Shown piece after piece: positions 25,801-52,020 of a DNA stretch of 64,000 nt (position 1 is the first letter of the stretch; every line of letters begins with the position of its first letter). The DNA comes from an uncultured delta proteobacterium (lineage in GTDB: Bacteria; Desulfobacterota; Desulfobacteria; Desulfobacterales; B30-G6): contig CAWGLD010000005.1 of NCBI GenBank assembly GCA_963823335.1, positions 160,001-224,000 on the forward strand, given 5' to 3'. The position numbers and the translations under genes are program-made. Under the pieces are notes generated by a model. It had not been told where the DNA came from and made no database searches. It was given only the letters and a program-made list of their open reading frames with translations.

Positions 25801-25951
25801 TGTATATCGGAAACACAGTAACGGAATAAACACTAAAATGTCAAGCAAAATAATTCCTCATTCTTGCCCTTTCCGGAAGCCAGGAAAATGATATTTTTTT
25901 GCTTGACATTTTTGCAAAAATCTCTGTATGAATGTTTCCTATCCGAATACA
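25801..25951. promoter_or_regulatory. Symmetric divergent promoter region with candidate operators
   Basis: aaaatgtcaagcaaaa (25835-25850) and ttttgcttgacatttt (25897-25912) form a perfect inverted repeat; each contains TTGACA pointing outward and is followed by TGTTTCC...ACA. Confidence 0.65.
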
Positions 25952-26021
25952 AAGCGTCAACGATAAGCATACGATATTTTCTAACCCGACCTTGTACCCT
26001 AACGCGCCATGTGGAGGTTAT

Positions 26022-27887
26022 ATGAATACTGAAAAAATATTTGGAAGTCATGGCCGGCTGCTCAGAATTGACCTCACCCACCAGGTTGTTCAAACAGAAC
26101 AATTGCCCTTAAATGATTTGCGCCTTTATTTGGGCGGAAGAGGGCTGGGTGCTGCAATCATGCTCAGAGAACTTCCGGCCGGAATCGACCCCCTTGGCGA
26201 AGAGAACCTCCTCATTTTTTCTACGGGTCCTCTGGTAGACTCACCTGTTCCTGGGAGCAACCGGTATGTTTTGCACACGAAATCCCCCCAAACGGGTCTC
26301 TATTCCTTTTCCGTGTCAGGCGGCCGTTTTGGTGACATGCTGAAAAAAACGGGTAACGACGTGATCATCATCAAGGGAAAAGCCTCCAGGCCGGTTTATC
26401 TCTTTGTGAAAGATGATGGCCGGGTTGAATTCAAAGACGCGTCACACCTGTGGGGTAAGGATACCGAAAAGACCCAGGAAAGCATCTTGTCGGAAACCGA
26501 CCCGGATGCCAGGGTTACCTGTATCGGTCCCGCCGGGGAGAATCTTGTGCCCTATGCTTGTCTTATCAATGAGCGACGGGCACTGGGGCGTGGTGGTGCA
26601 GGTGCTGTCATGGGATCTAAAAATCTGAAAGCCGTGGCCGTGTTGGGCCGGACCAGTGTTACTTTGGCCGATTCCGAAACCATGAAAACGGCCATAAAAA
26701 ACGGCTATCAGGAGCTTAAACAGAATCCTATGACGGCGAAAATTCTGAAGACCTACGGCAGTTCGAATATGCTCCGGGGCCTGATGAACCACGGTGCGCT
26801 GCCCGGAAATAACTGGGCAGAGGCTGCTCTTGACGAAGCCGAGTCGATTACCGCCGAACAGATGCGGGAGCATTTCCATGTCAAGGATCTGGCCTGTTCG
26901 GCCGGATGCCCGGTCAAGTGCTCGAAGATGTTCGCGGTAAAAGAAGGGGACTATCGCGGTGCGCAAAGCGAGGGTCCTGATTACGAAACCGTTTATGCCT
27001 TTGGGTCCTGTTGCGGTGTTTACGACCTGGCGCCCATCATTAGGGCGGATGAACTTTGCGATCTGTTAGGTCTCGATACAATCAGTACCGGCGTAAGTAT
27101 TGCCTTTGCAATGGAATGCCTGGAAAAAGGCATCATCGATGCCGGTGATGCCGATGCGGGCGATCTGGCATTTGGAAATGCCAAGGCCATGCTCAAGCTT
27201 GTTGAAGATGTGGCTTACAAAAGAGGCTTTGGCGTGGTGGTGGCAGAAGGAACCCGTGCTATGGCAGGCCGTTTTGGACGTGATTCACACAAATTTGCCA
27301 TGCATGCCAAGGGCATGGAGCTGGGGGGCTACGATCCGAGGGGTATGAAAGGGATGGGGCTCGTTTATGCCTGCGGCCCGAGGGGCGGGTGCCACCATGC
27401 CGGCGGCTATACAGCCATTGCTGAAATGATGAACCCCCAGATAGACCGATTTTCAGAAAAGGGTAAGGCCCCACTTGTGGCCGGAACCCGAAACAGACGT
27501 GCTTCTCTTTGCGACTCAGGTCTCATCTGTGCTTTCGTGGCCATCGGGCTCAGCGATGAAACCGTAATCGGTATGCTAAACAGCGCCACCGGGTTCAATT
27601 ACCAGCCAAGTGATCTGCACACCATTGGAGACAGAATCAGCCAGATCGAAAGGGCTTTTAACTGCCGGGAAGGGCTGACACGTGGTGATGACGTGCTCCC
27701 TGAACGGTTGTTGTCAGAAAGTGTCACCCGCGGACCCAGTCAGGGAGGGAAAATGGAGGATTTTGAGGCCATGAAAGACGAGTTCTACACGCTGTGTGGC
27801 TGGGACCTCACTTCAGGTGCTCCTCTGGAAGAAAGACTAGAAGCACTGGATATCGGCTGGGTGAAAGACATTCTCAAAACAAAATAA
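26022..27887 (+). CDS. Aldehyde:ferredoxin oxidoreductase (tungsten family), copy 1
   Basis: YLGGRGLG, KSPQTG, GRGGAGAVMGSKNLKA, CSAGCPVKC, DYET, DLLGLDTIS, GYDPRG, DSGLIC; RBS ggagg. Confidence 0.95.
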   Translation: MNTEKIFGSHGRLLRIDLTHQVVQTEQLPLNDLRLYLGGRGLGAAIMLRELPAGIDPLGEENLLIFSTGPLVDSPVPGSNRYVLHTKSPQTGLYSFSVSGGRFGDMLKKTGNDVIIIKGKASRPVYLFVKDDGRVEFKDASHLWGKDTEKTQESILSETDPDARVTCIGPAGENLVPYACLINERRALGRGGAGAVMGSKNLKAVAVLGRTSVTLADSETMKTAIKNGYQELKQNPMTAKILKTYGSSNMLRGLMNHGALPGNNWAEAALDEAESITAEQMREHFHVKDLACSAGCPVKCSKMFAVKEGDYRGAQSEGPDYETVYAFGSCCGVYDLAPIIRADELCDLLGLDTISTGVSIAFAMECLEKGIIDAGDADAGDLAFGNAKAMLKLVEDVAYKRGFGVVVAEGTRAMAGRFGRDSHKFAMHAKGMELGGYDPRGMKGMGLVYACGPRGGCHHAGGYTAIAEMMNPQIDRFSEKGKAPLVAGTRNRRASLCDSGLICAFVAIGLSDETVIGMLNSATGFNYQPSDLHTIGDRISQIERAFNCREGLTRGDDVLPERLLSESVTRGPSQGGKMEDFEAMKDEFYTLCGWDLTSGAPLEERLEALDIGWVKDILKTK

Positions 27888-27972: not shown

Positions 27973-28185
27973 GTGACTACGTTCGTCAAGAAAAATCGAC
28001 AATGGTGGATTACGTGGTTAATTGTCTGGATCGTCATGTATCTGCTGGCAATTCTGATATATCCGGACGCCCCCTCGATTTGGTTTGGATGGCTGCCAAG
28101 TTCGGTGGTAACCACTTTCGGGTTGATGGTCGCTTCCCTGATCTTTGGATATCTATTTGCCAAACAGCGGTTCAGCCAGAAATAG
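27973..28185 (+). CDS. Small two-helix membrane protein, probable SSS-symporter accessory subunit
   Basis: 70 aa, hydrophobic, WFGWLP motif, RBS aggagg, upstream of an SSS gene. Confidence 0.75.
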   Translation: MTTFVKKNRQWWITWLIVWIVMYLLAILIYPDAPSIWFGWLPSSVVTTFGLMVASLIFGYLFAKQRFSQK

Positions 28186-28210
28186 TCCTGGTGTCAGTGT
28201 AAACCGCAAC

Positions 28211-28274
28211 AGCGAGCGCATTCCCCATAGGTTCTGCCGTTCGGCAGTGCTTCGCATGCTGCGAGGTTCTTCAA
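28211..28274 (+). repeat. Dispersed repeat family A copy
   Basis: agcgagcgcattcccc...ttctgccgttcggcagtgcttcgcatgctgcgaggttcttcaa; both ends match the 42808 copy. Confidence 0.85.
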
Positions 28275-28327
28275 AACCGTATCTGATCTGGAAATATAAT
28301 TTTCCAGACGCTGGAAAGGAGGCCAAA

Positions 28328-29815
28328 TTGATTCTGAAAGTCATCCCTATCTTAATAATCGTTGCTTACATGGTGGTCTGTCTTGTGGTCGGTTATACTG
28401 TTTTCCGTTCTAAAGCCAAAATGAAATCCGGAGATTATTTTATCGGAGATCGAACCAGCGGTTCTTTTGTGGGACCCATGTCCTACATATCCACGGTATT
28501 CAGCGCTCTTGTCTTCATGGGTGCCGTAGGTATTTATTTTGCCCTCGGTATTGGTTTCAATATCTTTCTTATCAGTGAAATGTTTCTCCTGGCTGTGTTT
28601 GTCCCCACGGTGGGATATCTCTTCTGGCGGCTGGCCCACCAACACCAATACGTAACACCAGCGGACCTGATGACCCATCGCTACGGAAACGGACGGACTG
28701 TCCGGATCATCGTGGGCTTGAACACCGTCGGTTTTATGATATTCTTCATGGCCACCCAAATCGTCGGCATTTCTTACATCATGGAAACCATTACCGGCGG
28801 GCTGATGAGCTATGGTGCCTCGGTTATCCTTATTTCGGTCGTTCTGGCCTTTTATATCGTTTTGGGTGGATTCCGTGCCATAGAGTACACCGACACCTTC
28901 CAGGTGATTATTCTCATGACCTGTGTCGTGGGTACCTTTTTATTTTTAAGCACGAGTATTGACTGGACGGCTGCTTTCGTCCAGGCGCAACAGATCCGTC
29001 CGGCACTTTTCAAGGCTCCGGGCCCGATACCCATCTACACGACCAAGCTTTATATGTCTCAACTCTTTGTCATCGGTCTCGGGTTTGCACTGATGCCGCA
29101 ACTCTGGGTACGGATATACGCCGTCAAGAACGAAAAAGGCCTGCAGAATATCGTGACCTATTTTATCGGGAGCACGATCATCCTGTTCATTATTTCGTTT
29201 TTCCTGGCTGTGGCTGCTGCGCCAATTATTGGCAAACTGTTCGCCGAAGGAGAAAAACTTGTCCCGGCCAAAATTGTCATGAAGCTCATGTTCAGCAACA
29301 TGCCTTCCTGGCTGGCAGCTACGCTGCTTACCGGAGCTATCGCGGCGACCATGTCAACCGTGGACTCGGCGGTGCTGGCCCTCAGTTCCATCCTGACCAT
29401 CGATCTTTACCGCAAGCCGTTCAATCCCGAAATGAACCCGGCAAAAGAGGCCACTGTCGGGCGGATTGTCAGTGTATTGCTGATAGCCATCATGGCAGTT
29501 CTGGCCTTTTATCCACCGCAGTTGCTATTCAATTCGCTCATAGACATGGCCTATCCCGGATTGGTAACCCTTGCACCGGCTGCCATCTTGGGTATGTTCT
29601 GGAAAAAAGCCGGAACCGCTGCCGCGATCTCCAGTATTGTGTCGGGCTCTGTCCTGGCCGTGTATCTGATTTTTCATAAAAACCCAATGGGGCTCTACTC
29701 AGGTTTCTGGACCCTGCTGCTCAGTTTGGCGGTCTTCGGGGCAGTGACGTTTCTTATGCCATCAAAAGACGCAAGCTTTTTCAGGGATGTCGAGCGTGTC
29801 AGTGTTCATGAGTAA
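28328..29815 (+). CDS. Sodium:solute symporter (SSS, PanF/PutP-like)
   Basis: DYFIGDR, GGFRAIEYTDTFQ, AATMSTVDS; TTG start after aaggagg. Confidence 0.92.
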   Translation: MILKVIPILIIVAYMVVCLVVGYTVFRSKAKMKSGDYFIGDRTSGSFVGPMSYISTVFSALVFMGAVGIYFALGIGFNIFLISEMFLLAVFVPTVGYLFWRLAHQHQYVTPADLMTHRYGNGRTVRIIVGLNTVGFMIFFMATQIVGISYIMETITGGLMSYGASVILISVVLAFYIVLGGFRAIEYTDTFQVIILMTCVVGTFLFLSTSIDWTAAFVQAQQIRPALFKAPGPIPIYTTKLYMSQLFVIGLGFALMPQLWVRIYAVKNEKGLQNIVTYFIGSTIILFIISFFLAVAAAPIIGKLFAEGEKLVPAKIVMKLMFSNMPSWLAATLLTGAIAATMSTVDSAVLALSSILTIDLYRKPFNPEMNPAKEATVGRIVSVLLIAIMAVLAFYPPQLLFNSLIDMAYPGLVTLAPAAILGMFWKKAGTAAAISSIVSGSVLAVYLIFHKNPMGLYSGFWTLLLSLAVFGAVTFLMPSKDASFFRDVERVSVHE

Positions 29816-30468: not shown

Positions 30469-30554
30469 TCACAACCGGAAAACACTGCAGGACAATTAAA
30501 AAATCTGAACAAATTCATTGGTATGTGAAACAAAGCCGAAAAGGAGGAAAACCC

Positions 30555-31718
30555 ATGAGAGAACATGCCCTTTTTAATATGAGCTCCGGACCTGTCCAGG
30601 GAAGTGCCCGGACACTCCGGGCGCTATCCCAGCAAATTCTTTACCATCACGATCCTGAGTTTGCTGAGATATTTGATGCCTGCACCGAAAAACTGCAACG
30701 GTTTTTCAAGACATCAGGAGATGTCATTATCATGCAGGGTGAGGCACTCCTGGGCTTGGAAGCTGCGGCGTTCTGTACGATCGAACCCGGTGACAAATGT
30801 CTCAATTTAGTGTCCGGGATATACGGTCATCTATATGCCTGGTACATAGAGGCCTTCGGCGGCCAGATAGTTGAAGTGAGGACCGATTACAACAAGGCTA
30901 TCGATCCGGCCGAGGTGGAGAAGGCTTTTGCTGAGAACCCGGACATCAAGATCATGGCGGTTGTACACAGTGAGACACCTTCGGGAACTGTCAACCCCAT
31001 CGAGGACCTCTGCCCCATCGCTAAGAAATACGGCGCAATAACTATCGTCGATGCAGTTTCTTCCATTGGTGGGACAGAAGTGAATGTAGACGACTGGGGG
31101 ATCGACATCTGTTGTATCGGCCCGCAGAAGTGCCTGGCGTCGTCCCCGGGACTTGCACCAGTGGCTGTGAGTGAAGATGCCTGGGAAAAGATGCGCACTA
31201 AATCCAAGCCAGTGAGGTACTCCTACATGAGCATGCTCGATTTTAAAGAGCAATGGCTGTGTGAGAAAGAAAAGCGCAGTTTTCCGTATACCATGTTTAC
31301 CAATGAAGTCGTGGCCCTTGACGAAACCCTGGATCAGGTGTTTGAGGAAGGTCTGGAAAATATGATCGCTCGACACAAAACGGCGGCCAGAATGGCGCGT
31401 GCCGGGGTTAAGGGGATGGGACTTTCACTCTGGGCAGACACGGAAGACATCTGCGGGCCCTGCGCCACGGCGGTCAGAGCGCCGGACGGTGTCGACGAAG
31501 TCAAATTGCGGCGGCATCTTTATGATAAATATCGGATAACCATTTCCGGTGGATTCCGCGAACTTAAAGGAAAACTTTTCCGACTGGGCCATATGGGGCC
31601 GACGGCCAACCCTGCCTATGTCGCCATGCAGTTGGCAATGGTGGAAAAATCACTCCACGATATGGGCTACCCGGTTAAACTCGGCAGCGGTGTTGGGGCG
31701 GCTCTGGAAGCGATTTAA
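30555..31718 (+). CDS. Class V aminotransferase, pyridoxamine-pyruvate aminotransferase-like
   Basis: QGEALLGLEAAA, LNLVSGIYG, YNKAIDP, HSETPSGTVNP, VDAVSS, GPQKCL, TAVRAPDGVDE, RLGHMGPTA; parallels the Mesorhizobium PPAT sequence as recalled. Confidence 0.8.
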   Translation: MREHALFNMSSGPVQGSARTLRALSQQILYHHDPEFAEIFDACTEKLQRFFKTSGDVIIMQGEALLGLEAAAFCTIEPGDKCLNLVSGIYGHLYAWYIEAFGGQIVEVRTDYNKAIDPAEVEKAFAENPDIKIMAVVHSETPSGTVNPIEDLCPIAKKYGAITIVDAVSSIGGTEVNVDDWGIDICCIGPQKCLASSPGLAPVAVSEDAWEKMRTKSKPVRYSYMSMLDFKEQWLCEKEKRSFPYTMFTNEVVALDETLDQVFEEGLENMIARHKTAARMARAGVKGMGLSLWADTEDICGPCATAVRAPDGVDEVKLRRHLYDKYRITISGGFRELKGKLFRLGHMGPTANPAYVAMQLAMVEKSLHDMGYPVKLGSGVGAALEAI

Positions 31719-31746
31719 TTTAAACAGGATGCAAGGGAGGCAAAAA

Positions 31747-32145
31747 ATGCTGAATTTTGCAAACGAGAAATGCGTTAACTGTCGACTCTGTGAGGAGGTC
31801 TGCTCTTTCAGACTTACCAATGCGGTTTATCCCGGTGTTGCGGCTATTCGCATCGGTCGGGAGGAAGGCAGGTGGGGGACACCCTATGCCATGGTTTGTA
31901 ATCTGTGTGAGGGTTTGGAAGAACAGAAATGCATAACGGCATGTCCGGAAGATGCGCTCAACCTTGGTAACGGGGTGATCGTTTGGGATGATGAAAAATG
32001 TACCCGGTGTGAGCTGTGTGTCGACGCGTGTCCGCAAAAGGGGGTGGCTTTCGACAGCCGGTCCGAACGTATTCATATCTGTGATCTTTGCGGCGGTGAA
32101 CCGCTATGTATCGAGTGGTGCCCTGAAGAAGTGATTACCCTTTAA
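31747..32145 (+). CDS. Multi-[4Fe-4S] electron-transfer subunit (AOR partner)
   Basis: CVNCRLCEEVC, CNLC...CITACP, CTRCELCVDACP, CDLC...CIEWCP. Confidence 0.92.
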   Translation: MLNFANEKCVNCRLCEEVCSFRLTNAVYPGVAAIRIGREEGRWGTPYAMVCNLCEGLEEQKCITACPEDALNLGNGVIVWDDEKCTRCELCVDACPQKGVAFDSRSERIHICDLCGGEPLCIEWCPEEVITL

Positions 32146-32169: not shown

Positions 32170-33982
32170 ATGAAATTCAAGGGATATAAAGGACAGCTCT
32201 TGGTTGTAGATCTGACCTCGGGAACCATTGGCAAGCGGGGTCTCGACGAAGCGATCCTCCAAAAATATATCGGTGGCCGCGGTCTTGCAGCCAGAATTCT
32301 CTACGATGAAATCAAAGCCAAAGCCGACCCATATTCAGATGACAACCGTCTTCTCTTTATCACTGGGCCAGCCGCTGGTACGCTCATCCCCACCAGTGGG
32401 CGTTACGGTGTGGGTACCAAGTCGCCTTTAACCGGAGGCTTTTCCGTAGGATATGCCGGTGGACACTGGGCCAATAATTTGAAATACGCTGGTCATGACG
32501 GCATTCTATTTCAGGGCAGGAGTCCCAGTCCGGTTTACCTGTTTGTGGATGACGACAAGATCGAACTTCGTGATGCCGGAACCCTGTGGGGCAAGACCAC
32601 CGAACAAACTGAAGACACCCTGAAAAATGATCTGGGAAAGGGTTTTGAAATAGCCTCCATCGGGTTTGGCGGTGAGAACCAGGTTGGCTACGCAACCATA
32701 AGCAATGAGCAGCACGTGGTGGGCCGGGCCGGACAGGGTGCCGTCATGGGCTGGATGAACCTGAAAGCCGTCGCGGTTCGGGGGTCCGGAAGCGTCGATA
32801 TGGGTGTTGCAGGCAGGCAAGGTATCCAGGATGTTTTTTTTCTACACAAGACCATCCGCGAGAATGAAGTACGGGGACTCTTTCGCGATGTCGGTACCAC
32901 CGGCATGCTCGATCCCATAAACGAAGCAGCGGGCCAGCCCAGTTTTAATTTTCAAAAAACCTCTTTTCCAGATGTTGAAAAAATAAATGCCAACAACATG
33001 CGGCCCTGGTTTCAGAGGTTCGAATCCTGCTCCGGTTGTCCTGTGGCATGCGGCTCGATAACCAAATTCAAGCTGGACGGTGCTGACTTCACCACCGAAC
33101 GAATCGAGCATCAGAGTGTGGGAGCCCTGGCAACGAATTGCGGTATCTCCGATCTGCCGCGGGTCTTCGAAGCGCACGACCTCTGTGATAAATATGGTAT
33201 CGACACAATTTCTGCGGGTCTCTCCATCGCCTGGGCCATGGAGTGTTCTGAAAAGGGTTTGCTGTCCCTCGAAGAAGCGGACGGACTAGAAAATCAAGTT
33301 TGGCAATGCAATGGTCCTCAAGCCTTTGATTGAAAAAATCGCCCGAAAAGAAGGCATTGGTGCCTTGCTGGCCAAGGGGGTCCGGGCGGCTTCCCAGGAA
33401 CTGGGACGCGGATCGGAAAAATACGCCATGCACGTCAAGGGGCTGGAGATGCCCGGGTACGATCCGCGTGGCTTTTTCGGTATGGCTCTCAATCTGGCCA
33501 CAACCGCCCGTGGGGCCGACCATAATAAGGCTTTTACCATCGCGGCCGAGTTTCTGGGTGTTCTGGGCGATTACGACCGGTTTGCCTATGAAGGCAAGGC
33601 CGAGCTGGTCAAACGGATGCAGGATTCGACCGTTATTATCGACTCTATTATCATGTGCATGTTTACGGTGGATCTGGGTATCAGCGTGGATCTGTATGCC
33701 AAGGCCGTCAATCTCGCCACCGGTATGAACATAAGCGCTGACGATGTCTATACCATCGGTGACCGGGTCAACACGCTGGAGCGTCTGTTCAACCTGCGTG
33801 AAGGTGTCGGTTCGGACCAGGATAGACTGCCCGAACGGTTTGCCGAGGAGCCCGGTTCCGACCCGGAAGGACATGTAGTGGACGTATCCAGGATGTTGCC
33901 GGAGTATTATGAGCTCAGAGGATGGGATAAAAACGGTGTTCCGACCCCAGAGCATCTAAAAAAAATAGGCATCGACATTTAA
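32170..33982 (+). CDS. Aldehyde:ferredoxin oxidoreductase, copy 2, +1 frameshift near 33290
   Basis: YIGGRGL, KSPLTG, CSGCPVAC, DKYGIDTIS; next frame GYDPRG, RGADH, DSIIMC; extra A in gaaaatc. Confidence 0.9.
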
Positions 33983-34013: not shown

Positions 34014-35204
34014 ATGGCAAATCTCAATGTGAATTTTGCAGGATTGGAGCTGAAGAATCCATTTATCGCAGCCTCTTCCGAGTTGACCGATGAGTTCGAC
34101 AAAATCCGATGGGCAGAAGACTTCGGCGCCAGCGCCGTTTGTACCAAACTTGCGTTTCTCCAGGTGCCCTTTTATGCGCGTCCCTACCACGTGTTTGAAA
34201 AGGGAGGCGGATTTTACTCCCCCTCCGGGCATCGCCTGGGTGTGGAAGAGGCGCAGGTACTGATCCGTAAAACCAAGGAACAGACCGAACTGAAGGTGAT
34301 TGCCAACATGATGGGCCCCGGGGAAAATCTCGAAGGCTGGGTCAAGCTGGCTCAGATGCTCGAAGAGGCCGGCGCGGATATGGTGGAACTGAACATGTCC
34401 TGCCCCAACGTCGGTCTGATGGCAAAAAAGATGAACGTCGATGTCACCGATGAACTGGGAGCCCACCTGGGCAAGAACCCCGTACTGGCGCGAGAAGTCT
34501 GCCGGGCAATCTCGAGCAATCTCACCATTCCGGTCATGGCAAAAATGACCCCGGAAGGGCCTTGTGACATCGTGGCCGAGGGGTGTCAGCAGGGTGGTGC
34601 AGCCGCGGTGTCCGGGATCAATTGCCCCATGTCTCTGCCGGGATGTGATATTTACAACGACGGAAAGCCCCTTTACCCCAGCACCCATAATCAGTCCTTT
34701 GCCGGTATTTGCGGACCTTGGATTCGCCCACTGGCCTTCCGGCACATAGCCCAGATGCGTATGAAGTGTCCTGATCTGCCCATCGCCGGTGGCGGCGGTA
34801 TATCAAACTGGCAGCAATCTGTCCAGATGGTCATGTACGGTGCCACCGTCCTGACATACTGTACCCTGTTTTACACCGATGGCTACAAGGCTTTACCCAA
34901 GCTTGAAAAAGGTGTGCGGAAGTGGATGGACGAGATGGGGCACGAAACCCTGGCTGATTTTCAGAATATTGCCCTCAAACACATCGTCACCCCGCAAAAA
35001 GTCGAATACTTTGACGCCTACCCGGTCATCGATGAAGAGAAATGTAACGGCTGCAAGGTGTGTGTAGACCTGGGTCACTGTGAAGTAATGTCCTTTGACG
35101 AGGAAAGTAAAAAGGCCCATGTCCAAAAAAAGGACAAGTGCTACATGTGCGGTGTCTGCTACTGGCTCTGCAAGCGCAAGGCCATTACCATGGAAGCTGT
35201 CTAA
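34014..35204 (+). CDS. Dihydropyrimidine dehydrogenase PreA-like FMN TIM-barrel with C-terminal ferredoxin domain
   Basis: GLELKNPFIAAS, ELNMSCPN, PVMAKMTP, GIN, GGGGIS, CNGCKVC and CYMCGVCYWLC. Confidence 0.85.
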   Translation: MANLNVNFAGLELKNPFIAASSELTDEFDKIRWAEDFGASAVCTKLAFLQVPFYARPYHVFEKGGGFYSPSGHRLGVEEAQVLIRKTKEQTELKVIANMMGPGENLEGWVKLAQMLEEAGADMVELNMSCPNVGLMAKKMNVDVTDELGAHLGKNPVLAREVCRAISSNLTIPVMAKMTPEGPCDIVAEGCQQGGAAAVSGINCPMSLPGCDIYNDGKPLYPSTHNQSFAGICGPWIRPLAFRHIAQMRMKCPDLPIAGGGGISNWQQSVQMVMYGATVLTYCTLFYTDGYKALPKLEKGVRKWMDEMGHETLADFQNIALKHIVTPQKVEYFDAYPVIDEEKCNGCKVCVDLGHCEVMSFDEESKKAHVQKKDKCYMCGVCYWLCKRKAITMEAV

Positions 35205-35295
35205 GATTGATCTCAGTCACCAAACAAAAATCGATACGTAATATTTTATCACAACCGATGTGCTACAGAGGTTGGGAAAATGGAGGTTCTTTAAC

Positions 35296-36714
35296 ATGCC
35301 GTATGATAGCTTTCAGCATTATTTAGAGACGCTTGAAAAAAATGACTGTGTCAAGTGGGTCGAGAAAGAAGTAGATAAAGATTGGGAAATTACGAGTGTG
35401 GCTCGTAATTACTTCAGGAAAACCAAGGAAAGTGAAAGATGTGCATTGGGCTTTCGAAACGTGAAAGGGTACGACATTCCCGTGGTTCTCGGAGCCATCG
35501 GGGCATCCCGGAAAATATATGGTCTCGCCATTGAAACAGACCCTGGGTTCAGCAGTATCAAAGAGACCTTGTCCGGTGCTCTGGCAAACCCCATCGACCC
35601 GGTAGTGGTCGATAGTGGCCCGTGCAAGGATGTGATTTTGACCGGTGATGAAGTGGACTTGTACCGCTTTCCCATTCCCACATGGACACCGGAAAAGGAT
35701 CCAGCTCCATTTCTGACAGCCCCTTGTCTGTTCACACGCCACGCTGAAACCGGGGTTGGAAACATCGGAACTTACCGGATGGAAATAAAGGCCAAAAATG
35801 AAACAGGTGTGTTATGGGATCTTCCAAGCCAACATGGCGCCGTTCATTACGCCTCATGGGAAAAACGGAACGAACCCATGCCCATGGCGGTTGTCATCGG
35901 AGCGGATCCGACCATCATCATGTCATCGGTAAGCAAGGTGCCGTTGGGGGTTGACGAAATATCCGTTGCCGGAGGACTGCGTGGCAAACCCGTGGAGGTG
36001 GTCAAATGCGAAACATGCGACATATACGTACCAGCCACCGCCGAAATCGTTCTCGAAGGCGTGGTTTTGCCTGGTGAGAGTGTGGTGGAAGGACCCTTTG
36101 GGGAATACACCGGATACATGGGTGGTCCGTATATGATGCCCAAGTTTTATGTCAAGTGCATCACCCATCGCAAAAAGCCGGTCTATCACGCACTGTTCAG
36201 CCAGATGCCGCCAAGCGAGAGCAGCCTGATGCGGCAGCTGCCCGAAGAGGCCAATGTCTATCAACATCTGAACGGCTATCTGAAAATACCCGGTATAAAG
36301 GACGTTCATCTGCCTGAGGCAGGCGGGAGCTACTCCATCTGCTGGATCAGCATGAAAACCTCCTTTCCCGGACACGTACAGCAAGTCTTGTCCGCTGCCT
36401 GGACCCACCACCCCACATTTGCCAAATGGATCGTGGTCACCGACGATGACGTGGACATTCGCGACCCGTTTATACGGGAATGGATTCTGGCTTTTAGGGT
36501 GGAACCTCAAAAAGACATCACGTTTATGCCAAACACGGCCCCCATACTCCTGGATCCATCCTCGGATCCCCCCGAGGTGCCGCTATGGGATCGGCGCTCT
36601 TCCAAGGTGCTGATCGATGCCACCCAGAACTGGGAATATCCGGAAATTGCCTTGCCGCCCCAGAAGTATTTGGACCAGGCGGCTGACCAGTGGGAAAAAT
36701 ACGAATTAGATTGA
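35296..36714 (+). CDS. UbiD-family (prFMN-dependent) decarboxylase
   Basis: NIGTYRME, VVIGADP, VPATAEIVLEG, EGPFGEYTGY, VTDDDVD, KVLIDAT. Confidence 0.93.
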   Translation: MPYDSFQHYLETLEKNDCVKWVEKEVDKDWEITSVARNYFRKTKESERCALGFRNVKGYDIPVVLGAIGASRKIYGLAIETDPGFSSIKETLSGALANPIDPVVVDSGPCKDVILTGDEVDLYRFPIPTWTPEKDPAPFLTAPCLFTRHAETGVGNIGTYRMEIKAKNETGVLWDLPSQHGAVHYASWEKRNEPMPMAVVIGADPTIIMSSVSKVPLGVDEISVAGGLRGKPVEVVKCETCDIYVPATAEIVLEGVVLPGESVVEGPFGEYTGYMGGPYMMPKFYVKCITHRKKPVYHALFSQMPPSESSLMRQLPEEANVYQHLNGYLKIPGIKDVHLPEAGGSYSICWISMKTSFPGHVQQVLSAAWTHHPTFAKWIVVTDDDVDIRDPFIREWILAFRVEPQKDITFMPNTAPILLDPSSDPPEVPLWDRRSSKVLIDATQNWEYPEIALPPQKYLDQAADQWEKYELD

Positions 36715-36728
36715 TCAAGGAGAATTCT

Positions 36729-37679
36729 ATGAAAACTTTCGATATAAAAAAGGTGGCGGTTATCGGCACCGGAACCATGGGCCCGGGTATCGCCCAGGTG
36801 CTGGCTCAGCACGAGATCGATGTGCAGATATTCGACATCGATCCCGAACAGTTAATAAAAGCTCGGGAAACCCTGGGCGCGAACCTGGGCCTGGTGAAAC
36901 AGGCCGGTATGCTCTCTGACACCGAAGCGGTAGAGATCCAGAACCGGATTCAAAACGCCGCCAGTCTGGCGGATGCTGTCTTGAATGCCGACCTGGTACT
37001 CGAGGTCATTCCCGAAGTGATGGATCTCAAGACACGGCTTTTGCGTGAACTGGACGAAATCTGCGGGCCGGACACCATCCTGGCCAGCAACACCTCGGGG
37101 CTCAGCATTACCAGGATGGCCCAGGCCACCCGGCGTCCGGAAAAAGTGGTTGGTATGCACTGGTGGAACCCACCCATAATCATCCCGGTCATCGAAATCG
37201 TCAAGGGTGAGTCAACGGGTGAGGATGTTCTGCAAACAGTTGATAATCTGATCCGTAAAATAGGTAAGGTACCGGTTCTGGTCAAAAAAGACGTTCCGGG
37301 CTTTTTGGGCAATCGCTTACAGTACGCGCTCATGCGAGAAGCAATTGCGCTATTGAACGAGGGGGTTGCCAGCGCGGAAGACATCGACACCATGATCAAG
37401 GCCGGAATCGGATTCAAGTTTCCCGTTATGGGACCACTTGAAACAATCGACATGGCGGGTCTGGACATTTACTACCGCGTGTCCCAGTACCTGAATAAAG
37501 AGTTGGACAAGTCCGAAGGCGCCGCGCCCATCGTTGCCAAGATGGTCGAGCAGGGCGATCTGGGTCTCAAGAGCGGCAAAGGTTTCTACGATTATTCAAA
37601 CCAGGATGTCAAAGCGTTGATGGGTGGAAGGATTAAAAAACTGCTCCTTCTGCTGAAAGAGCTGGGATACGTGAAATAG
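36729..37679 (+). CDS. 3-hydroxyacyl-CoA dehydrogenase-family protein, 5-formyl-3-hydroxy-2-methylpyridine-4-carboxylate dehydrogenase-like
   Basis: GTGTMGPG, SNTSG, GMHWWNPPIIIPVIE, VKKDVPGF, GIGFK...GP, DMAGLDIY; family certain, specific assignment from recalled similarity and context. Confidence 0.75.
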   Translation: MKTFDIKKVAVIGTGTMGPGIAQVLAQHEIDVQIFDIDPEQLIKARETLGANLGLVKQAGMLSDTEAVEIQNRIQNAASLADAVLNADLVLEVIPEVMDLKTRLLRELDEICGPDTILASNTSGLSITRMAQATRRPEKVVGMHWWNPPIIIPVIEIVKGESTGEDVLQTVDNLIRKIGKVPVLVKKDVPGFLGNRLQYALMREAIALLNEGVASAEDIDTMIKAGIGFKFPVMGPLETIDMAGLDIYYRVSQYLNKELDKSEGAAPIVAKMVEQGDLGLKSGKGFYDYSNQDVKALMGGRIKKLLLLLKELGYVK

Positions 37680-37720
37680 CTTTTTAATTGCATCTTTATT
37701 TCCAGATGAAGGAGGCACAT

Positions 37721-38722
37721 ATGAAATCAAGCATCACACTGATCAAGGGCGCCAGGTTGATCGTGGAGCATTGCATGACGGTCAAGGCCGACGACAAGGT
37801 CCTGATTATCGCCGACGATGAGCACATGCCGGAAGCACAAAGTATTGCCGGCGTGGCATACTCACTGGGAGCCTATCCCGTGATTGCCAATGTGACCCAT
37901 CATGTCAGCGCCGCATTGGCTTCCATGACGGTGCCCATGGAACCACCGGCGCATCTGGCCCAGGCTATGCTGAACGCCGACGAGATCATCATCACCACCA
38001 ACCTGGAATGGGCAAACCGTTTTGCCCACGTAGACCCGGTCAAAGGCAGCGTCGAACGCGGTGCCAAGATAGCCTCCGTCGAGGAGGGGCTGGGCAGCTG
38101 GGACCTTGAGATCAGCGACATCGACCTGATCACCGAACGGGCGGAGAAGATAATCACGGCCATGCAAGGCGCCAAGTGGGTTCACGTAACCAATCCAGCG
38201 GGCACCGATGTCAATGTCTGTATTGAGAATCGGCCGCCACTGAAGGTCGTTCCGGTAAAAGAACCCGGTATCATGATGGGCCCAATCCCGTTGTGGGGGG
38301 AGGTCGCATATGCCGCCGTTGAGAACAAAACCCACGGCAAGATCGTGGTGGACGGTATCATGCTGGGTGTCGGGATCAGTGGCACCTTGCCGGAACATAT
38401 GACCTGGACCATCGAAAACGGTCGTGCGGTGGATATTTCCGGTGGCGAGGCAGCGCAAAAATTAAAAAAGGTCGTAGCCGATGCTGAGGAGAATGCCAAC
38501 ACCATTGCCGAATTTGCCATCGGTACCAGTCATAAGGAAAAATTCGGTAGCCCTTCTGAAAAAGGCATGCTGGGAACGGTCCACTTTGCCCTGGGGGACA
38601 ATGCCCACTGCTACCCCGGGGGACAGAGCTGGTGCAGTGTTCATCTTGATGGCAGTGTTCGGGATGTGACCATCGAAGTGGATGGCAAGCCGATTATGAA
38701 AGACGGCCAACTCATCATCTAA
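37721..38722 (+). CDS. Aminopeptidase T/M29-like metalloprotein (NicX-related fold)
   Basis: GEV, HGKIVVDG, IAEFAIGT, EKGMLGTVHFALGDN, HLDG. Confidence 0.8.
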   Translation: MKSSITLIKGARLIVEHCMTVKADDKVLIIADDEHMPEAQSIAGVAYSLGAYPVIANVTHHVSAALASMTVPMEPPAHLAQAMLNADEIIITTNLEWANRFAHVDPVKGSVERGAKIASVEEGLGSWDLEISDIDLITERAEKIITAMQGAKWVHVTNPAGTDVNVCIENRPPLKVVPVKEPGIMMGPIPLWGEVAYAAVENKTHGKIVVDGIMLGVGISGTLPEHMTWTIENGRAVDISGGEAAQKLKKVVADAEENANTIAEFAIGTSHKEKFGSPSEKGMLGTVHFALGDNAHCYPGGQSWCSVHLDGSVRDVTIEVDGKPIMKDGQLII

Positions 38723-38738: not shown

Positions 38739-39101
38739 ATGGGTATCAAAATTGTCAAAATATCTGAAATCGAGGCCATTCCGCTACCCAATGACAGCTG
38801 GTCAAAAAAAGTGTTGACCGCTGAAACTGTCGGGGCCGGGAAAATGTGTATGGGTGTATCTAAATTTGCTCCCGGGGTGGTGACGGACTTGTTGGTACAC
38901 GAAGAAGAGGAGCTGGCATACGTGCTCAAGGGTAAGGGCAGCCTGCGTCTAAAGGACGGTTCAGAGGTAACATACGAAGCAGGTGACGGCATCTACATCC
39001 CACCCGGAGTAGCGCACAGCGTGGTCAACGAAGGGAACGAAGACGTCGAAATGGTTTTCGGGTTTTCTTGGCCGGACTATCCTCCCACGCACAAGGAATA
39101 A
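38739..39101 (+). CDS. Cupin-domain protein
   Basis: HEEEELAYVLKGKG...GDGIYIPPGVAHSVVN. Confidence 0.9.
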   Translation: MGIKIVKISEIEAIPLPNDSWSKKVLTAETVGAGKMCMGVSKFAPGVVTDLLVHEEEELAYVLKGKGSLRLKDGSEVTYEAGDGIYIPPGVAHSVVNEGNEDVEMVFGFSWPDYPPTHKE

Positions 39102-39174: not shown

Positions 39175-40056
39175 ATGAAAGCCTTTGATTATGAGCGGCC
39201 CTCGGGTTTTGAAGATGCCTGTCGGTTACTGAATGGGGCCGGTGGCAGCAAGAAAGTTTTGGCGGGAGGGACGGATCTTCTTGTCAAAACAAGACATGGG
39301 GTGATTGCTCCAGAAGGGATGATCAGTCTCAGGGACATTCCCGGGTTGTCGGACATCTCATTTGATCCTGACAAGGGTCTATCGCTCGGTGCCATGACGC
39401 GACTTACCGATGTCGAAAACGATGGTATCGTGAAAGAACAATACCCGGCACTTGGCGCGGCAGTCGCTACCATAGGATCCACACAGGTCCGAAACAGGGC
39501 CACCATCGGAGGCAACATATGCAATGCGGCACCATCAGCGGATTCACCGCCGATCCTAATCGCCTACGGGGCTTCCGTAGTTATCGGGGATGGAAAAACT
39601 GAACGAGAAGTGCTGTTAGAGGAGTTTTTTACCGGCCCAGGACAGACCGTTCTGCGGGTGGGGGAAATCGTCAAGCAGATTCTTGTCCCGACACCGCCAA
39701 AAAATGTCTTCGCTATCTACATCAAGGCCGCCAGGTCTGCCCTCGATATCGCCCTTGTCGGTGTGGCCCTTGTGGCCATTTACGATCCTGCCGATTTGGT
39801 GGTCAAGGATCTGAAAGTAGCTTTGGCGGCCGTGGCGCCGACACCGGTTCGATCCAGAGAAATGGAACGCATCGTCATTGGAAACAGACTCGACCAGGCA
39901 ATCATCGAGAAAGCCGTTGGAGAATCCTGCACCGATGCCTGTTCCATAACCGATATCCGGACAACCGAAGGCTATCGGGACACATTGGTTGAAACTCACA
40001 CCAGGCAGGCGCTTGAAGCGGCCAGGGCCTGGATCGAAAAGGGAGGTGCGCGGTGA
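39175..40056 (+). CDS. Xanthine dehydrogenase-family FAD subunit
   Basis: AGGTDL, QVRNRATIGGNICNAAPSAD. Confidence 0.95.
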   Translation: MKAFDYERPSGFEDACRLLNGAGGSKKVLAGGTDLLVKTRHGVIAPEGMISLRDIPGLSDISFDPDKGLSLGAMTRLTDVENDGIVKEQYPALGAAVATIGSTQVRNRATIGGNICNAAPSADSPPILIAYGASVVIGDGKTEREVLLEEFFTGPGQTVLRVGEIVKQILVPTPPKNVFAIYIKAARSALDIALVGVALVAIYDPADLVVKDLKVALAAVAPTPVRSREMERIVIGNRLDQAIIEKAVGESCTDACSITDIRTTEGYRDTLVETHTRQALEAARAWIEKGGAR

Positions 40057-40523
40057 AACGGGAACTCAACACAACGATCAACGGTCAGCCTTACAACCTC
40101 TTCGTGAGCACTCACCGCACACTTCTTGAGGTCATTCGCGACGACCTCGGTCTGACCGGGACCAAGGTGGGCTGTGAGATGGGAGAGTGCGGCGCCTGTA
40201 CGGTAATCATGGATGGCCGAACGGTTAATTCCTGCCTGGTTCTGGCACATGAGGCAGAAGGTTGTGAGGTGCAAACCATCGAGGATTTGGCAAAAGATGG
40301 CAAGCTGCATCCCATCCAGACATCGTTTATCGAACACGGAGCCATACAGTGCGGTTTCTGTACTTCCGGCATGATCATGTCAACCAAAGGTCTTTTGGAA
40401 AAGAACCCCCATCCCCTAAATGATGAAATCCGTTCAGAAATGCGGGGTAACATCTGCCGTTGTACAGGATACGTCAAGATCGTCGAGGCCATTGAAGCCG
40501 TCAGGGATGGAGGTGACAAATGA
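40053..40523 (+). CDS. Xanthine dehydrogenase-family [2Fe-2S] subunit
   Basis: GCEMGECGACTV, NSC, QCGFCT, NICRCTGY. Confidence 0.96.
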   Translation: MKRELNTTINGQPYNLFVSTHRTLLEVIRDDLGLTGTKVGCEMGECGACTVIMDGRTVNSCLVLAHEAEGCEVQTIEDLAKDGKLHPIQTSFIEHGAIQCGFCTSGMIMSTKGLLEKNPHPLNDEIRSEMRGNICRCTGYVKIVEAIEAVRDGGDK

Positions 40524-44702: not shown

Positions 44703-45734
44703 GTGAAAAAAATTGAGTTCAACGACATCGCTCCCGCATTTTATTCTGTGCTTTCCATCGTATTTGCCCTGATCACCGGGGCCGTCATCCTGATCTTTAT
44801 CGGTAAGAATCCATTGCTGTACTTTGGGCAGCTTTTCTTTCAGGGGATGTTCAGTTCCCTGGGTCTTGTGGAATCCATTATCAAAATGGCACCGCTCCTG
44901 ATCATCTCGGCCGGTCTTTTAGCCTGTTTTTCAGCCGGGTTATGGAATATCGGTGTGGAAGGCCAGTTCTTGATCGGAGCGGTTCTGGCCGGGTGGAGCG
45001 CACCCACGTTGGCCAGCCTGCTGCCGTATCCTATCTACTTGCTTTCCGTAGCTTTGCTGGGGGCGCTGGGGGGTATGTTCTGGATCCTTCTTCCTGCCGT
45101 TCTCAAAGCACGCTACGACATGAACGAGATTATCACCACGATGATGATGAACTGGGTGGCCATCAGCCTGGTCACATGGCTGGTCAAGGGGCCCATCAAT
45201 GATCCCACGACCGTTCCGGCCCAGACAGCGCTGATCCCAATGGAGTACCGTCTTTCCATGATTCCGTTTACATCAATCCATATCGGTCTGATTGTAGGGA
45301 TTATCTGCCTTTTTATCATGCACTACGTAATCCGTAGAACGACCCTCGGGTATGAGTTTCGGGTGCTTTTATCCAACAAATGTGCGGCATTTCACTCCGG
45401 CATGAGTGTCGCCCGAATTACCATCTGGGGGCTTTTAATCAGCGGTGGCTTTGCCGGTCTGGCCGGGGTTAGTGATGTCATTGCCATCAAGGGGCTATTC
45501 CAAGGAGACTGGAATCCGGCATATGGAATGACGGCCATTCCTCTTGTATTTCTGGCAAGATTTAATGGGTGGGCGGTTGTTCCTCTGGCATTTTTCTTCT
45601 CATTTTTAATTGTAGGGGGAGAGTTCGTAGCCCGGGATCAGGGGGTGCCGATCTTTTTTGTTCACATTCTGGAAGGATTGACCCTCCTGTTTTTCGCAGC
45701 CTCTGAATATATAGAAAAAAGGAGGGCAATCTAA
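44703..45734 (+). CDS. Nucleoside-type ABC permease 1
   Basis: WNIGVEGQ, NEIITTMMMNW. Confidence 0.9.
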   Translation: MKKIEFNDIAPAFYSVLSIVFALITGAVILIFIGKNPLLYFGQLFFQGMFSSLGLVESIIKMAPLLIISAGLLACFSAGLWNIGVEGQFLIGAVLAGWSAPTLASLLPYPIYLLSVALLGALGGMFWILLPAVLKARYDMNEIITTMMMNWVAISLVTWLVKGPINDPTTVPAQTALIPMEYRLSMIPFTSIHIGLIVGIICLFIMHYVIRRTTLGYEFRVLLSNKCAAFHSGMSVARITIWGLLISGGFAGLAGVSDVIAIKGLFQGDWNPAYGMTAIPLVFLARFNGWAVVPLAFFFSFLIVGGEFVARDQGVPIFFVHILEGLTLLFFAASEYIEKRRAI

Positions 45735-47927: not shown

Positions 47928-49274
47928 TTACCTGGGCTCGCCGTACATCTCCACTTTGGACCAGCTATCAAGCATTGCCATGTATGCCTCCCGGGTGAAA
48001 GCCGTTTGGTGGTTCCTTAGAATACTTCGTGCTGCTTCGGCATCACCCCACAACAAGTCAACTGCGGTCATCGCCATCAGTTTGGCCACTTTTGTGTAGA
48101 CAGCCGATCGGTCAACGAGCTGCCAGCTTTTACCATGTGGGGATCCGACGGCGCCGGCCAGATACGGATGGAGTGCCGGCATAATTTGTGAAAGATCGCC
48201 CATGTCCGTGGACCCGCTGCGATGCGGAACTAGGCCGAATGCATCGTCGCCCAACAACGCGCGACTGTTGGTACCGAACACATCCGTCATTTCCGGGTTG
48301 TTCGTCATGGGCAGATAGCCAGGAATCGTTTTGATTTCGACACCGGCACCCAGGGCCATGGCGCCTGCGCGGAGGGATCGGTCCACCTTTTCGGATGCAT
48401 CCCGTATGGCTTCCTCCGTCCGTGCCCGTACAAACATCTCCAGCCAGACTTCCGAAGGCACCGTGTTGACGGAATCACCACCCCGGGTGATGATGGGGTG
48501 AACCCGTACGGAATCCGAATCTTGAAACGTCTCTCTCTGAGCATGAATGGCCGCTATCGCAAGGTGGGCAGCGTTTAAGGCATTGATGCCTTGGTGAGGC
48601 GCTAGGCCGGCATGGGCCGATCTTCCTAGAAAACGGACTTTCTTTACCACAAAACCGTTGGATGACTCGGCTACGGCCACGGTGGGAAAGTCGGCACTGC
48701 TGTGAATGTGTATCATCAGCGAAAGATTCACGTTATCAAAAAAGCCCAGCTTGATGAGTTCCTGCTTTCCGCCCAAATAGGAGATCAGCCCTTCCTTCTG
48801 CAAACCCTCCCGGAACTCGATATCAACGTATTCTTCGGCCGGTACACAAAAGAAAATGATTGTTCCGGCAATATATGGCGCTACCCCCGCTGCCGTCAGA
48901 CCGAGAACGGCCCCTAAGAGCCCGGCAACCTGTGCGTCGTGACCACAGTTGTGCGACACCCCGGTCTCCGGATCAGCCCAGGGATGGTCCGGTGCAGGCA
49001 GGGCGTCCATTTCACCAATGAGGGCTATGGCAGGGCCGTGGCGTTTCCCCGCGAGTCGACCCTTGACGCCGGTTATGGCCAGTCCGGACTCAACAGAAAG
49101 ACCTGCTTTTTCCATGATGCGGACTGAGAGGTCGGCGGTTTGAAATTCCTTATAGCCGAGTTCGGGTTTTTTGCGTATTGCGTCGCCTATCGCTGTGATA
49201 TCTTTTGTCTGCCCATCGATAATGTCGCAGATCTTTGTTTTGAGTGCTTTCTTGCTGTTTACGGTCATTCCCAA
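47928..49274 (-). CDS. M20D amidohydrolase (ACY1L2/AbgB-like)
   Basis: PELGYKE, GEMDAL, HNCGH, PAEE, GRSAHAG, GSTDMGD. Confidence 0.92.
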   Translation of the reverse strand: MGMTVNSKKALKTKICDIIDGQTKDITAIGDAIRKKPELGYKEFQTADLSVRIMEKAGLSVESGLAITGVKGRLAGKRHGPAIALIGEMDALPAPDHPWADPETGVSHNCGHDAQVAGLLGAVLGLTAAGVAPYIAGTIIFFCVPAEEYVDIEFREGLQKEGLISYLGGKQELIKLGFFDNVNLSLMIHIHSSADFPTVAVAESSNGFVVKKVRFLGRSAHAGLAPHQGINALNAAHLAIAAIHAQRETFQDSDSVRVHPIITRGGDSVNTVPSEVWLEMFVRARTEEAIRDASEKVDRSLRAGAMALGAGVEIKTIPGYLPMTNNPEMTDVFGTNSRALLGDDAFGLVPHRSGSTDMGDLSQIMPALHPYLAGAVGSPHGKSWQLVDRSAVYTKVAKLMAMTAVDLLWGDAEAARSILRNHQTAFTREAYMAMLDSWSKVEMYGEPR

Positions 49275-51144: not shown

Positions 51145-51158
51145 AATCAGCATGATTT

Positions 51159-51962: not shown

Positions 51963-52020
51963 TTAAGAGGTCAGCTATTTTTATAACAGAAAACAGATCA
52001 GACCGTCAAAAAGAGTTCCC

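Follow-up and report, generated by a model that had tools for sequence, protein, structure and literature searches.

The stretch of DNA analysed here (the window; 64,000 nucleotides of contig CAWGLD010000005.1 from an uncultured member of the Desulfobacterales) carries, at positions 36729 to 37679, a gene for a dehydrogenase of the 3-hydroxyacyl-CoA dehydrogenase (HAD) family. The protein is best explained as a CoA-independent NAD(H) enzyme of HAD fold that belongs to the sister lineage of the aerobic 5-formyl-3-hydroxy-2-methylpyridine-4-carboxylate (FHMPC) 5-dehydrogenase, known from Mesorhizobium loti. Judging from its relatives and neighbours, the gene most likely lies in an operon for the oxygen-independent catabolism of vitamin B6, in which the dehydrogenase would act on the C5′ substituent of a B6-derived pyridine. 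With a probability of roughly 0.55, we propose that it oxidises the 5′-hydroxymethyl or 5′-formyl group of such a pyridine, and that this step is coupled to an aldehyde:ferredoxin oxidoreductase (AOR) and a UbiD-family decarboxylase.

To our knowledge, only oxygen-dependent routes of bacterial vitamin B6 degradation have been described. We found no description of anaerobic B6 degradation, or of the clade to which the window protein belongs, in the literature that was searched, most subscription journals being outside it. By homology, it is the dehydrogenase that ties the AOR/UbiD/molybdenum hydroxylase operon of the window most strongly to the known B6 pathway.

A HAD-fold protein close to FHMPC 5-dehydrogenase

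The open reading frame (ORF) of the dehydrogenase ends at 37679 on the + strand and offers two alternative starts, GTG 36690 and ATG 36729. The latter is the likely start, since it is preceded by a ribosome-binding site and by the stop codon of the UbiD gene (36712-36714, 14 nt ahead), and since relatives align from residue 1; for this last reason the protein is taken as 316 aa long.

36717..36722, + strand: ribosome-binding site AAGGAG, 6 nt 5′ of ATG 36729 (sequence read)
36729..37679, + strand: FHMPC-dehydrogenase-like NAD dehydrogenase, 316 aa (Pfam 3HCDH_N + 3HCDH, NF042925, 4om8, tree)

Pfam assigns the protein to 3HCDH_N (2.9e-59) and 3HCDH (2.1e-27). Its motifs are GTGTMGPGI at residues 13-21, GMHWWNPPIIIPVIE at 142-156, VKKDVPGF at 185-192, GIGFK at 226-230 and DMAGLDIY at 241-248. 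All motifs quoted in the first-pass annotation of this DNA are thus present in the ORF, and the usual HFFNP is replaced by HWWNP.

The top match among PDB sequences is 4om8, the FHMPC 5-dehydrogenase of M. loti (E 8.2e-77, 261.7 bits, residues 6-308), followed by the Clostridium 3-hydroxybutyryl-CoA dehydrogenase (Hbd) 6aa8 with 215.5 bits. In the HMMER alignment to the window protein, 4om8 carries GMHWSNPPHIIPMIE, VKKDVPGF, GIGYK and DMAGLDIY, so that the two proteins have GMHW.NPP, VKKDVPGF, GIG(F/Y)K and DMAGLDIY in common; the motif match to the M. loti enzyme can be read directly from this alignment. Among NCBIfam families, NF042925 (FHMPC_DH, EC 1.2.1.100) scores highest with 328.5 bits, ahead of the Hbd model PRK08269 with 268.7. 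The latter is the best of the Hbd and HAD models of NCBIfam, none of which reaches its cut-off (427 for PRK08269). Carnitine dehydrogenase (160.8 bits), L-gulonate dehydrogenase (lambda-crystallin; 138) and diketoreductase (121.7) were considered as alternative assignments and rejected against the scores for FHMPC dehydrogenase in NCBIfam and PDB.

Ser123, His144 and Glu156 of the window protein align to Ser116, His137 and Glu149 of 4om8, which we take to be the catalytic triad named by its depositors. Ser123, Glu156 and Asn195 never vary in an alignment of 44 sequences, in which His144, Asn147 and Asp36, the acidic residue typical of NAD binding, show a conservation of at least 90%. An AlphaFold2 model built from the same alignment (mean pLDDT 95.9) predicts a two-domain HAD fold (3HCDH_N + 3HCDH_C) with an extra C-terminal helix at residues 294-311. 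The top Foldseek match of this model in the PDB is again 4om8 (chain A; E 1.6e-30, TMq 0.76), and the alignment of 312 columns covers the C-terminal helix. Hbd chains reach TMq values of 0.66-0.69 over 286-290 columns, with the helix outside the alignment. The window protein therefore resembles the M. loti enzyme in its predicted two-domain fold, its C-terminal helix, the Ser-His-Glu triad and the two Asn residues. With Hbd (PDB 6aa8, 4kue) it shares fold, NAD binding and catalytic residues; however, Hbd has HFFNP and no C-terminal helix (its alignments stop at about residue 290), uses CoA-ester substrates and has thiolase and crotonase as partners, which are absent from the scanned ORFs of the window.

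The motifs are rare in the wider family. Among 149 HAD-family representatives (50% identity clusters from a phmmer search of the whole sequence library), MHW[SW]NP and G[IL]G[FY]K each occur in five and VKKDVPGF in a single one; HFFNP is found in 49. The 120 best matches of a word-indexed search with the dehydrogenase (54-95% identity) all carry MHWWNPP, and carriers of this motif amount to at least 120 clusters at 90% identity. Many top-scoring representatives (P0121-P0124, P0126 and others) are 520-660 aa long with two matched stretches, and are apparently tandem double HAD domains.

Paralogs and missing aerobic enzymes in the host genome

The genome from which the window derives (4.37 Mb, 11 contigs, 93.9% complete) contains 11 other PF02737 paralogs. 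In nine of them, a thiolase, enoyl-CoA hydratase, acyl-CoA dehydrogenase or CoA-ligase-type gene is fused to the paralog or stands no more than about three genes away; of the remaining two, one is next to an HpaB/AbfD-like gene and the other has no such neighbour. Around the window gene, a Pfam scan of the 48 window ORFs of at least 150 aa (and, of the smaller ones, the cupin at 38739-39101) revealed no thiolase, crotonase, acyl-CoA dehydrogenase, CoA-ligase or CoA-transferase domain. The first-pass statement that thiolase, crotonase and CoA ligase are missing from the window holds for these 48 ORFs, and the absence of CoA-pathway neighbours is a distinguishing feature of the window copy. Compared with the paralogs, the window protein also has a 3-residue insertion in the GIGFK region, and it carries HWWNP at the catalytic His, where the paralogs have HF(F/M)(N/S/G)P or HYFNP. 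One paralog (G000:C1:1842114-1842653; L211:5986-7110; 374 aa, with a match to the N-terminal domain only) adjoins an NMT1/THI5-like gene and lacks a CoA-pathway neighbour.

The genome encodes dsrA above cut-off and thus belongs to a sulfate- or sulfite-reducing anaerobe. Searching it by tblastn at E<=1e-5 gave no match for either of the two GMC oxidoreductases, the MHPC-oxygenase-like gene or the aldolase-type gene of M. loti, and the 4-pyridoxolactonase found a 23% match at best. In line with this, the FAD-dependent 4-pyridoxate dehydrogenase, which the first-pass annotation had supposed to be missing, is indeed undetected in this 93.9%-complete genome. UbiX, which is needed to supply prenylated FMN (prFMN) to UbiD, is encoded elsewhere in the genome.

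Phylogenetic position

When the window protein is searched in the M. loti LU genome, the FHMPC dehydrogenase gene of its vitamin B6 locus (L057) comes first with 256.5 bits (next, 177.8). Conversely, the M. loti enzyme finds the window gene first in the window's genome (226 bits; next, 173). By sequence, the two genes thus behave as reciprocal best hits.

A maximum-likelihood tree of 65 rows (IQ-TREE, LG+G4; support given as UFBoot/SH-aLRT) unites the window type and the aerobic FHMPC dehydrogenase type in one clade (100/99); the same union had an SH-aLRT of 99 in a preliminary tree of 91 rows. Within it, the window protein falls in a clade of 13 rows made up of metagenome sequences and metagenome-assembled genomes (MAGs; 99/92). 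This clade is sister to a group that joins the dehydrogenases of loci L005, L097 and L007 with the aerobic type (96/90). The aerobic type by itself is supported by 100/100, and the window clade stands beside it, not inside it. Six paralogs from the window's own genome form the outgroup (96/90). Rooted on these paralogs, the aerobic enzymes nest beside L005, L007 and L097, which have an anaerobic context; on the bolder of the readings given below, the aerobic enzyme would be a derived offshoot of this anaerobic lineage. The resemblance to FHMPC dehydrogenase noticed at first pass therefore recurs in the PDB, NCBIfam and Foldseek searches, in the reciprocal best hits, in the tree, where the protein groups with FHMPC dehydrogenases apart from the paralogs, and in its B6-type neighbours.

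Fifteen positions are specific to the joint window and aerobic clade; four of the 15 are not independent, because they were used to define the classes of dehydrogenase described below. A third set of HAD proteins of about 310 aa (GTHFWNPP type, about 40% identical) falls outside the union. This large separate group is represented by 53 loci (L003, L006, L012, L042, L052, L074-L078, L080 and others) with the motifs GTHFWNPP, VKKDVPGF, GFG.R and DM.GLDLT. Its members score about equally on the FHMPC_DH and CoA-dehydrogenase models and have no B6 or UbiD context.

Gene context of the dehydrogenase

From 25932 to 47842, that is from AOR1 through the BMP-type ABC transporter, all genes of the window lie on the + strand. 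The genes around the dehydrogenase are as follows.

25932..27887, + strand: aldehyde:ferredoxin oxidoreductase 1 (AOR1); AFOR_N + AFOR_C
28145..29815, + strand: sodium:solute symporter; SSF, with a 41% homologue in L005
29836..30468, + strand: helix-turn-helix (HTH)-cupin regulator; HTH_3 + Cupin_2, with homologues in L093, L094, L096, L097 and G330
30525..31718, + strand: pyridoxamine-pyruvate-transaminase (PPAT)-like class V aminotransferase; NF046070 396 bits (cut-off 600; next family 214)
31549..32145, + strand: 4Fe-4S ferredoxin-type protein; Fer4 families at residues 114-196; true start probably downstream of 31718
32170..33982, + strand: aldehyde:ferredoxin oxidoreductase 2 (AOR2), split; AFOR_N/AFOR_C on two overlapping ORFs
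34014..35204, + strand: PreA/dihydroorotate-dehydrogenase-like flavoprotein with C-terminal 4Fe-4S domain; Pfam DHO_dh + Fer4, NF006183 210 bits, below cut-off
35260..36714, + strand: UbiD-family (prFMN) decarboxylase; Pfam UbiD/UbiD_C/UbiD_N, TIGR00148 314 (cut-off 245)
37688..38722, + strand: M29-like protein; weak Peptidase_M29 match, 44 bits
38739..39101, + strand: small cupin; Cupin_2, with a cupin at the same position in L005 and L094
39175-40056, + strand: xanthine-dehydrogenase-family molybdenum hydroxylase, FAD subunit; Pfam/NCBIfam, below equivalog cut-offs
40053-40523, + strand: the same hydroxylase, 2Fe-2S subunit; Pfam/NCBIfam, below equivalog cut-offs
40520-42799, + strand: the same hydroxylase, Mo subunit; Pfam/NCBIfam, below equivalog cut-offs
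43161-44693, + strand: BMP-type ABC transporter of the 'putative B6' kind, ATPase; NF047930 562.8 bits, top match (cut-off 670)
44703-45734 and 45734-46672, + strand: BMP-type ABC transporter, permeases
46805-47842, + strand: BMP-type ABC transporter, binding protein; NF047927 331.4 bits, top match (cut-off 400)
47928..49274, - strand: M20 amidohydrolase; TIGR01891 183.8 (cut-off 153.75)
50299-51144, + strand: YqeB, accessory gene of selenium-dependent molybdenum hydroxylases; TIGR03309 354.8 (cut-off 220)
51159-51962, - strand: YqeC, accessory gene of selenium-dependent molybdenum hydroxylases; PF19842

The known B6 cluster of M. loti (L057) contains FHMPC_DH, the four B6 ABC transporter models, 4-pyridoxolactonase and PPAT, all above cut-off, as well as two GMC oxidoreductases, an MHPC-oxygenase-like gene and a class II aldolase-type gene. 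Six genes are common to this cluster and the window operon: the dehydrogenase, four ABC transporter genes and PPAT. The BMP-type transporter of the window is 38-50% identical to that of Mesorhizobium B6 clusters, and the PPAT-like protein is 39-41% identical to Mesorhizobium PPAT genes (41% to that of M. loti). When the window proteins were compared by tblastn with 80 species-representative loci, the same transporter (38-50%) and transaminase (37-49%) were found beside the FHMPC dehydrogenase gene in Mesorhizobium and many other aerobes. Thus, the window gene and the M. loti gene are alike in having PPAT and a B6-type transporter among their neighbours. In M. loti, however, the partners include a GMC 4-pyridoxate dehydrogenase, an aldolase-type decarboxylase and MHPC oxygenase; the window gene, whose host is a dsrA-bearing anaerobe, has AOR, UbiD, a PreA-like protein and a putatively selenium-dependent molybdenum hydroxylase in their place.

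We classed 160 loci on the motifs of the dehydrogenase alone (M143-H-W145, S/W at 146, K230 and Y/F248) and counted neighbours in the loci of at least 8 kb.

Aerobic type: 99 loci, 80 of at least 8 kb; B6-type binding protein in 61, PPAT-like in 52, either in 62, neither in 18
Window type: eight loci, six of at least 8 kb; UbiD in 5, M29-like in 5, PreA-like in 4, AOR in 4, B6-type binding protein in 3, PPAT-like in 2, at least one of these in 6
Other types: 53 loci, 32 of at least 8 kb; all 32 lack these genes, Mo subunit in 3

Gene context tracks the dehydrogenase clade, in a sample of loci that is biased towards these families because the collection patterns include VKKDVPGF and MHWWNPPI. 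Two shorter loci of the window type add UbiD (L007) and AOR (L095).

Over the whole span between AOR1 and the binding protein, synteny with the window is complete in loci L093 and L096 (90-92% identity). In L094, L095 and G330, a genome of the same phylum (62% identity), the dehydrogenase has an AOR (57-60% identical to AOR1) as its immediate upstream neighbour. In L094 and G330, a block of regulator, PreA, UbiD and M29 genes stands further downstream, followed in G330 by the hydroxylase genes. In the Spirochaetes MAG locus L001, the dehydrogenase is followed by an Amidohydro_2 gene (PF04909; 5505-6221) and then by a B6-type transporter, an iron-dependent alcohol dehydrogenase (Fe-ADH), a ferredoxin and AOR; no UbiD occurs within the 14.6 kb examined. 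The Amidohydro_2 family includes non-oxidative decarboxylases of hydroxy-aryl acids, and this gene may be a non-homologous replacement of the decarboxylase. A decarboxylase would then be found near the dehydrogenase in three non-homologous forms: UbiD directly upstream (window, L005), Amidohydro_2 (L001) and the aldolase II type of M. loti, where one GMC gene lies between the aldolase-type gene and the dehydrogenase. This recurrence fits an aromatic carboxylate as the product.

A possible route for anaerobic vitamin B6 degradation

How could the genes of the operon act together? We infer substrate, direction and the coupling to AOR and UbiD as follows. After its uptake, pyridoxamine would be turned into pyridoxal by the PPAT-like transaminase, and an AOR would oxidise the 4-aldehyde to 4-pyridoxate. 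The dehydrogenase, via its Ser123-His144-Glu156 triad together with Asn147 and Asn195, would then transfer a hydride from the 5′-hydroxymethyl group to NAD+ and yield the 5′-aldehyde, FHMPC or a close analogue. Oxidation of an alcohol by NAD+ costs about +20 to +25 kJ/mol, and the oxidation of an aldehyde is strongly exergonic. The unfavourable alcohol oxidation may thus be pulled by the irreversible oxidation of the aldehyde to the dicarboxylate. Two catalysts are conceivable for the latter: the second AOR with ferredoxin, or the dehydrogenase itself, which would use the hydrated aldehyde like its M. loti counterpart. Finally, the adjacent UbiD would decarboxylate the pyridine dicarboxylate. 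The M. loti enzyme both oxidises FHMPC and reduces it to 4-pyridoxate, and so works as a dismutase; unlike it, the window enzyme would start from the alcohol in its proposed physiological direction.

The first-pass annotation had suggested such a reverse reaction pulled by AOR. Direction and pull have gained circumstantial support, with two AORs in the operon and an AOR directly upstream in L094, L095 and G330, and are still a conjecture. A bolder version of the scheme is possible but doubtful. Here, the HAD-fold dehydrogenase would replace the membrane-bound FAD-dependent 4-pyridoxate dehydrogenase and, alone or with a tungsten AOR, deliver pyridine-4,5-dicarboxylate to UbiD, as the central steps of an undescribed anaerobic mineralisation of vitamin B6 in sulfate reducers.

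Parts of the scheme have counterparts elsewhere. In the hydroxymethylfurfural/furan-2,5-dicarboxylate (HMF/FDCA) pathway, a 5-hydroxymethyl-furan acid is converted to furan-2,5-dicarboxylate and then handed to HmfF. As proposed here, a hydroxymethyl group on a heteroaromatic acid passes through the formyl to the carboxyl stage before a prFMN-dependent decarboxylation. The HMF/FDCA pathway, however, acts on a furan and not a pyridine and lacks PPAT and the B6 transporter; its oxidations are catalysed by an oxidase or other dehydrogenases. A second parallel is the couple of alcohol dehydrogenase (ADH) and AOR in the ethanol oxidation of Pelobacter and Desulfovibrio, in which an NAD-dependent alcohol oxidation is pulled by a ferredoxin-dependent aldehyde oxidation. 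The ADHs of these couples are Fe-ADH and Zn-ADH, whereas the window enzyme has a HAD fold and its substrate is presumably a pyridine.

If the substrate is confirmed, the gene would provide a marker for anaerobic B6 turnover in sediments and add another non-CoA function to the HAD fold. The operon would then be a worked example of how AOR, prFMN-dependent and selenium-dependent molybdenum enzymes replace oxygenase and oxidase steps.

Contrary evidence and alternative explanations

Several observations weigh against our reading. The window protein is 42% identical to the characterised FHMPC dehydrogenase of M. loti, and its NF042925 score lies below the equivalog cut-off of 500 bits. The M. loti LU gene reaches 566.5; a Caldilineaceae gene (L002), which sits with PPAT and an ABC transporter, is also below the cut-off with 407.5. 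The window clade departs from the aerobic type at nine positions whose conservation among 99 aerobic-type sequences is 91% or more (M. loti numbering first): P119 to S126, Q124 to A131, S139 to W146, H143 to I150, L173 to K180, E187 to G194, W218 to A225, Y222 to F229 and R255 to S262. The changes at S139 and H143 flank the catalytic His, and that at E187 flanks a catalytic Asn. The substrate of the window enzyme may thus differ from FHMPC, for example by lacking the 4-carboxylate. At several of the nine positions the window type shares the residue of unrelated HADs, so that the aerobic enzymes may be the specialised ones. The resemblance to FHMPC dehydrogenase seen at first pass stands, but the family score and the nine positions speak against a strict equivalence. 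On its sequence, the protein should not be filed as an FHMPC dehydrogenase equivalog, although this is its nearest relative; it appears to be a variant of that enzyme in an anaerobic setting with different partners.

Further points concern the direction and the context. The reduction of FHMPC to 4-pyridoxate by the M. loti enzyme has been described as practically irreversible. AOR2 is interrupted by a 1-nt insertion in an A-rich stretch near 33288, and the copies in L093 and L096 are in one frame; the split may be a real frameshift or an assembly error. The 'putative B6' names of the transporter families in NCBIfam are themselves derived from gene context. Moreover, no PPAT or B6-type transporter was found in L094, G330, L097 and L005 within the DNA examined, and loci with the same core use Liv-type, NMT1/THI5-like (L097) or SSF (L005) transporters instead. 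The substrate there need therefore not be B6, and core operons of this kind may serve other heteroaromatic alcohols. In L097, a 48% identical dehydrogenase stands with UbiD, M29-like and hydroxylase genes and with two NMT1/THI5-like binding proteins (1165-2517 and 5202-6197), a hint that the core pathway may in some of its versions act on another heteroaromatic compound, e.g. a thiamine pyrimidine.

Some of these points would fit a chemistry like the one proposed, in which the same AOR- and UbiD-coupled oxidation of a hydroxymethyl or formyl group takes place on a substrate other than 4-pyridoxate or FHMPC. Such a substrate could be a B6 intermediate that has previously lost its carboxyl group at C4, or else isopyridoxal/5-pyridoxate, the thiamine pyrimidine HMP or a hydroxymethyl-furan acid. 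The lost residues H143 and R255 could both, at a guess, bind the 4-carboxylate; the binding proteins of L097 and the lack of PPAT and B6 transporter in L094 and G330 point the same way. In addition, the nearest solved relatives of the UbiD protein are structures of the furan-dicarboxylate decarboxylase PtHmfF (6h6x and 6h6v, 229.8 and 223.6 bits; E. coli UbiD, 218.6). We still regard another substrate as unlikely for the window itself, where the PPAT-like transaminase and the B6-type ABC transporter stand in the operon, as they do in L093 and L096, and L001 joins the dehydrogenase to a B6-type transporter and AOR. Similarly improbable, in our view, is a role later in the pathway, in which the enzyme would serve as an NADH-dependent formyl reductase or a 3-hydroxy-acid dehydrogenase for a product whose ring has been reduced or opened. 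This idea is modelled by analogy on the 2-(hydroxymethyl)glutarate dehydrogenase of nicotinate fermentation, which is preceded by molybdenum hydroxylase, ring reductase and amidohydrolase steps. The window gene has UbiD on one side and the M29-like hydrolase-type gene on the other, near a PreA-like reductase and the candidate selenium-dependent molybdenum hydroxylase, an arrangement that resembles nicotinate fermentation, and the polar residues H143, E187, Y222 and R255 of the aerobic enzymes are replaced. However, the nearest characterised relative works on an intact pyridine, and the upstream AOR in three loci, together with the decarboxylases in three non-homologous forms, better fits oxidation of an aromatic side chain.

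By far the least probable explanation is that of an ordinary (S)-3-hydroxyacyl-CoA or 3-hydroxybutyryl-CoA dehydrogenase that lies in the operon by chance. It would agree with the Pfam domains, with the public annotation of homologues as '3-hydroxyacyl-CoA dehydrogenase', and with the scores of 260-269 bits that Hbd models still give. Against this, the protein fails the NCBIfam cut-offs of all Hbd and HAD models, has HWWNP in place of HFFNP and the insertion in the GIGFK region, and is separated from the Hbd-like paralogs by a 96/90 branch; CoA-pathway genes accompany nine of the 11 paralogs and occur in none of the 48 window ORFs scanned. We therefore prefer the oxidation of the C5′ substituent of a B6-derived pyridine.

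Further genes and observations

The M29-like gene is syntenic in L005, L093, L094, L096, L097 and G330, where it stands beside UbiD and the dehydrogenase. Its product has no NCBIfam match and no match among PDB sequences. Across 401 genomes of the phylum, a close match (75%) was found only in its own genome and in G330. Paralogs with 27-36% identity, often several per genome, occur in 25 other genomes of this set, and the protein is therefore part of a sizeable uncharacterised family.

Near the xanthine-dehydrogenase-family genes, the region 50299-55071 holds YqeB, YqeC, two MobA-like nucleotidyltransferases and a MoCF_biosynth protein. The adjoining of these genes suggests that the molybdenum hydroxylase of the window is selenium-dependent.

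No terminator-like site was found on the + strand between 34953 and 44776, in a window whose overall counts of terminators and promoters are close to those of shuffled sequences. In a Liv-type ABC transporter further upstream, two overlapping ORFs (14345-15259 and 15093-15689) match positions 6-96 and 135-269 of one and the same BPD_transp_2 profile. This permease, at 14345-15689, may be another frameshifted or split gene of the window.

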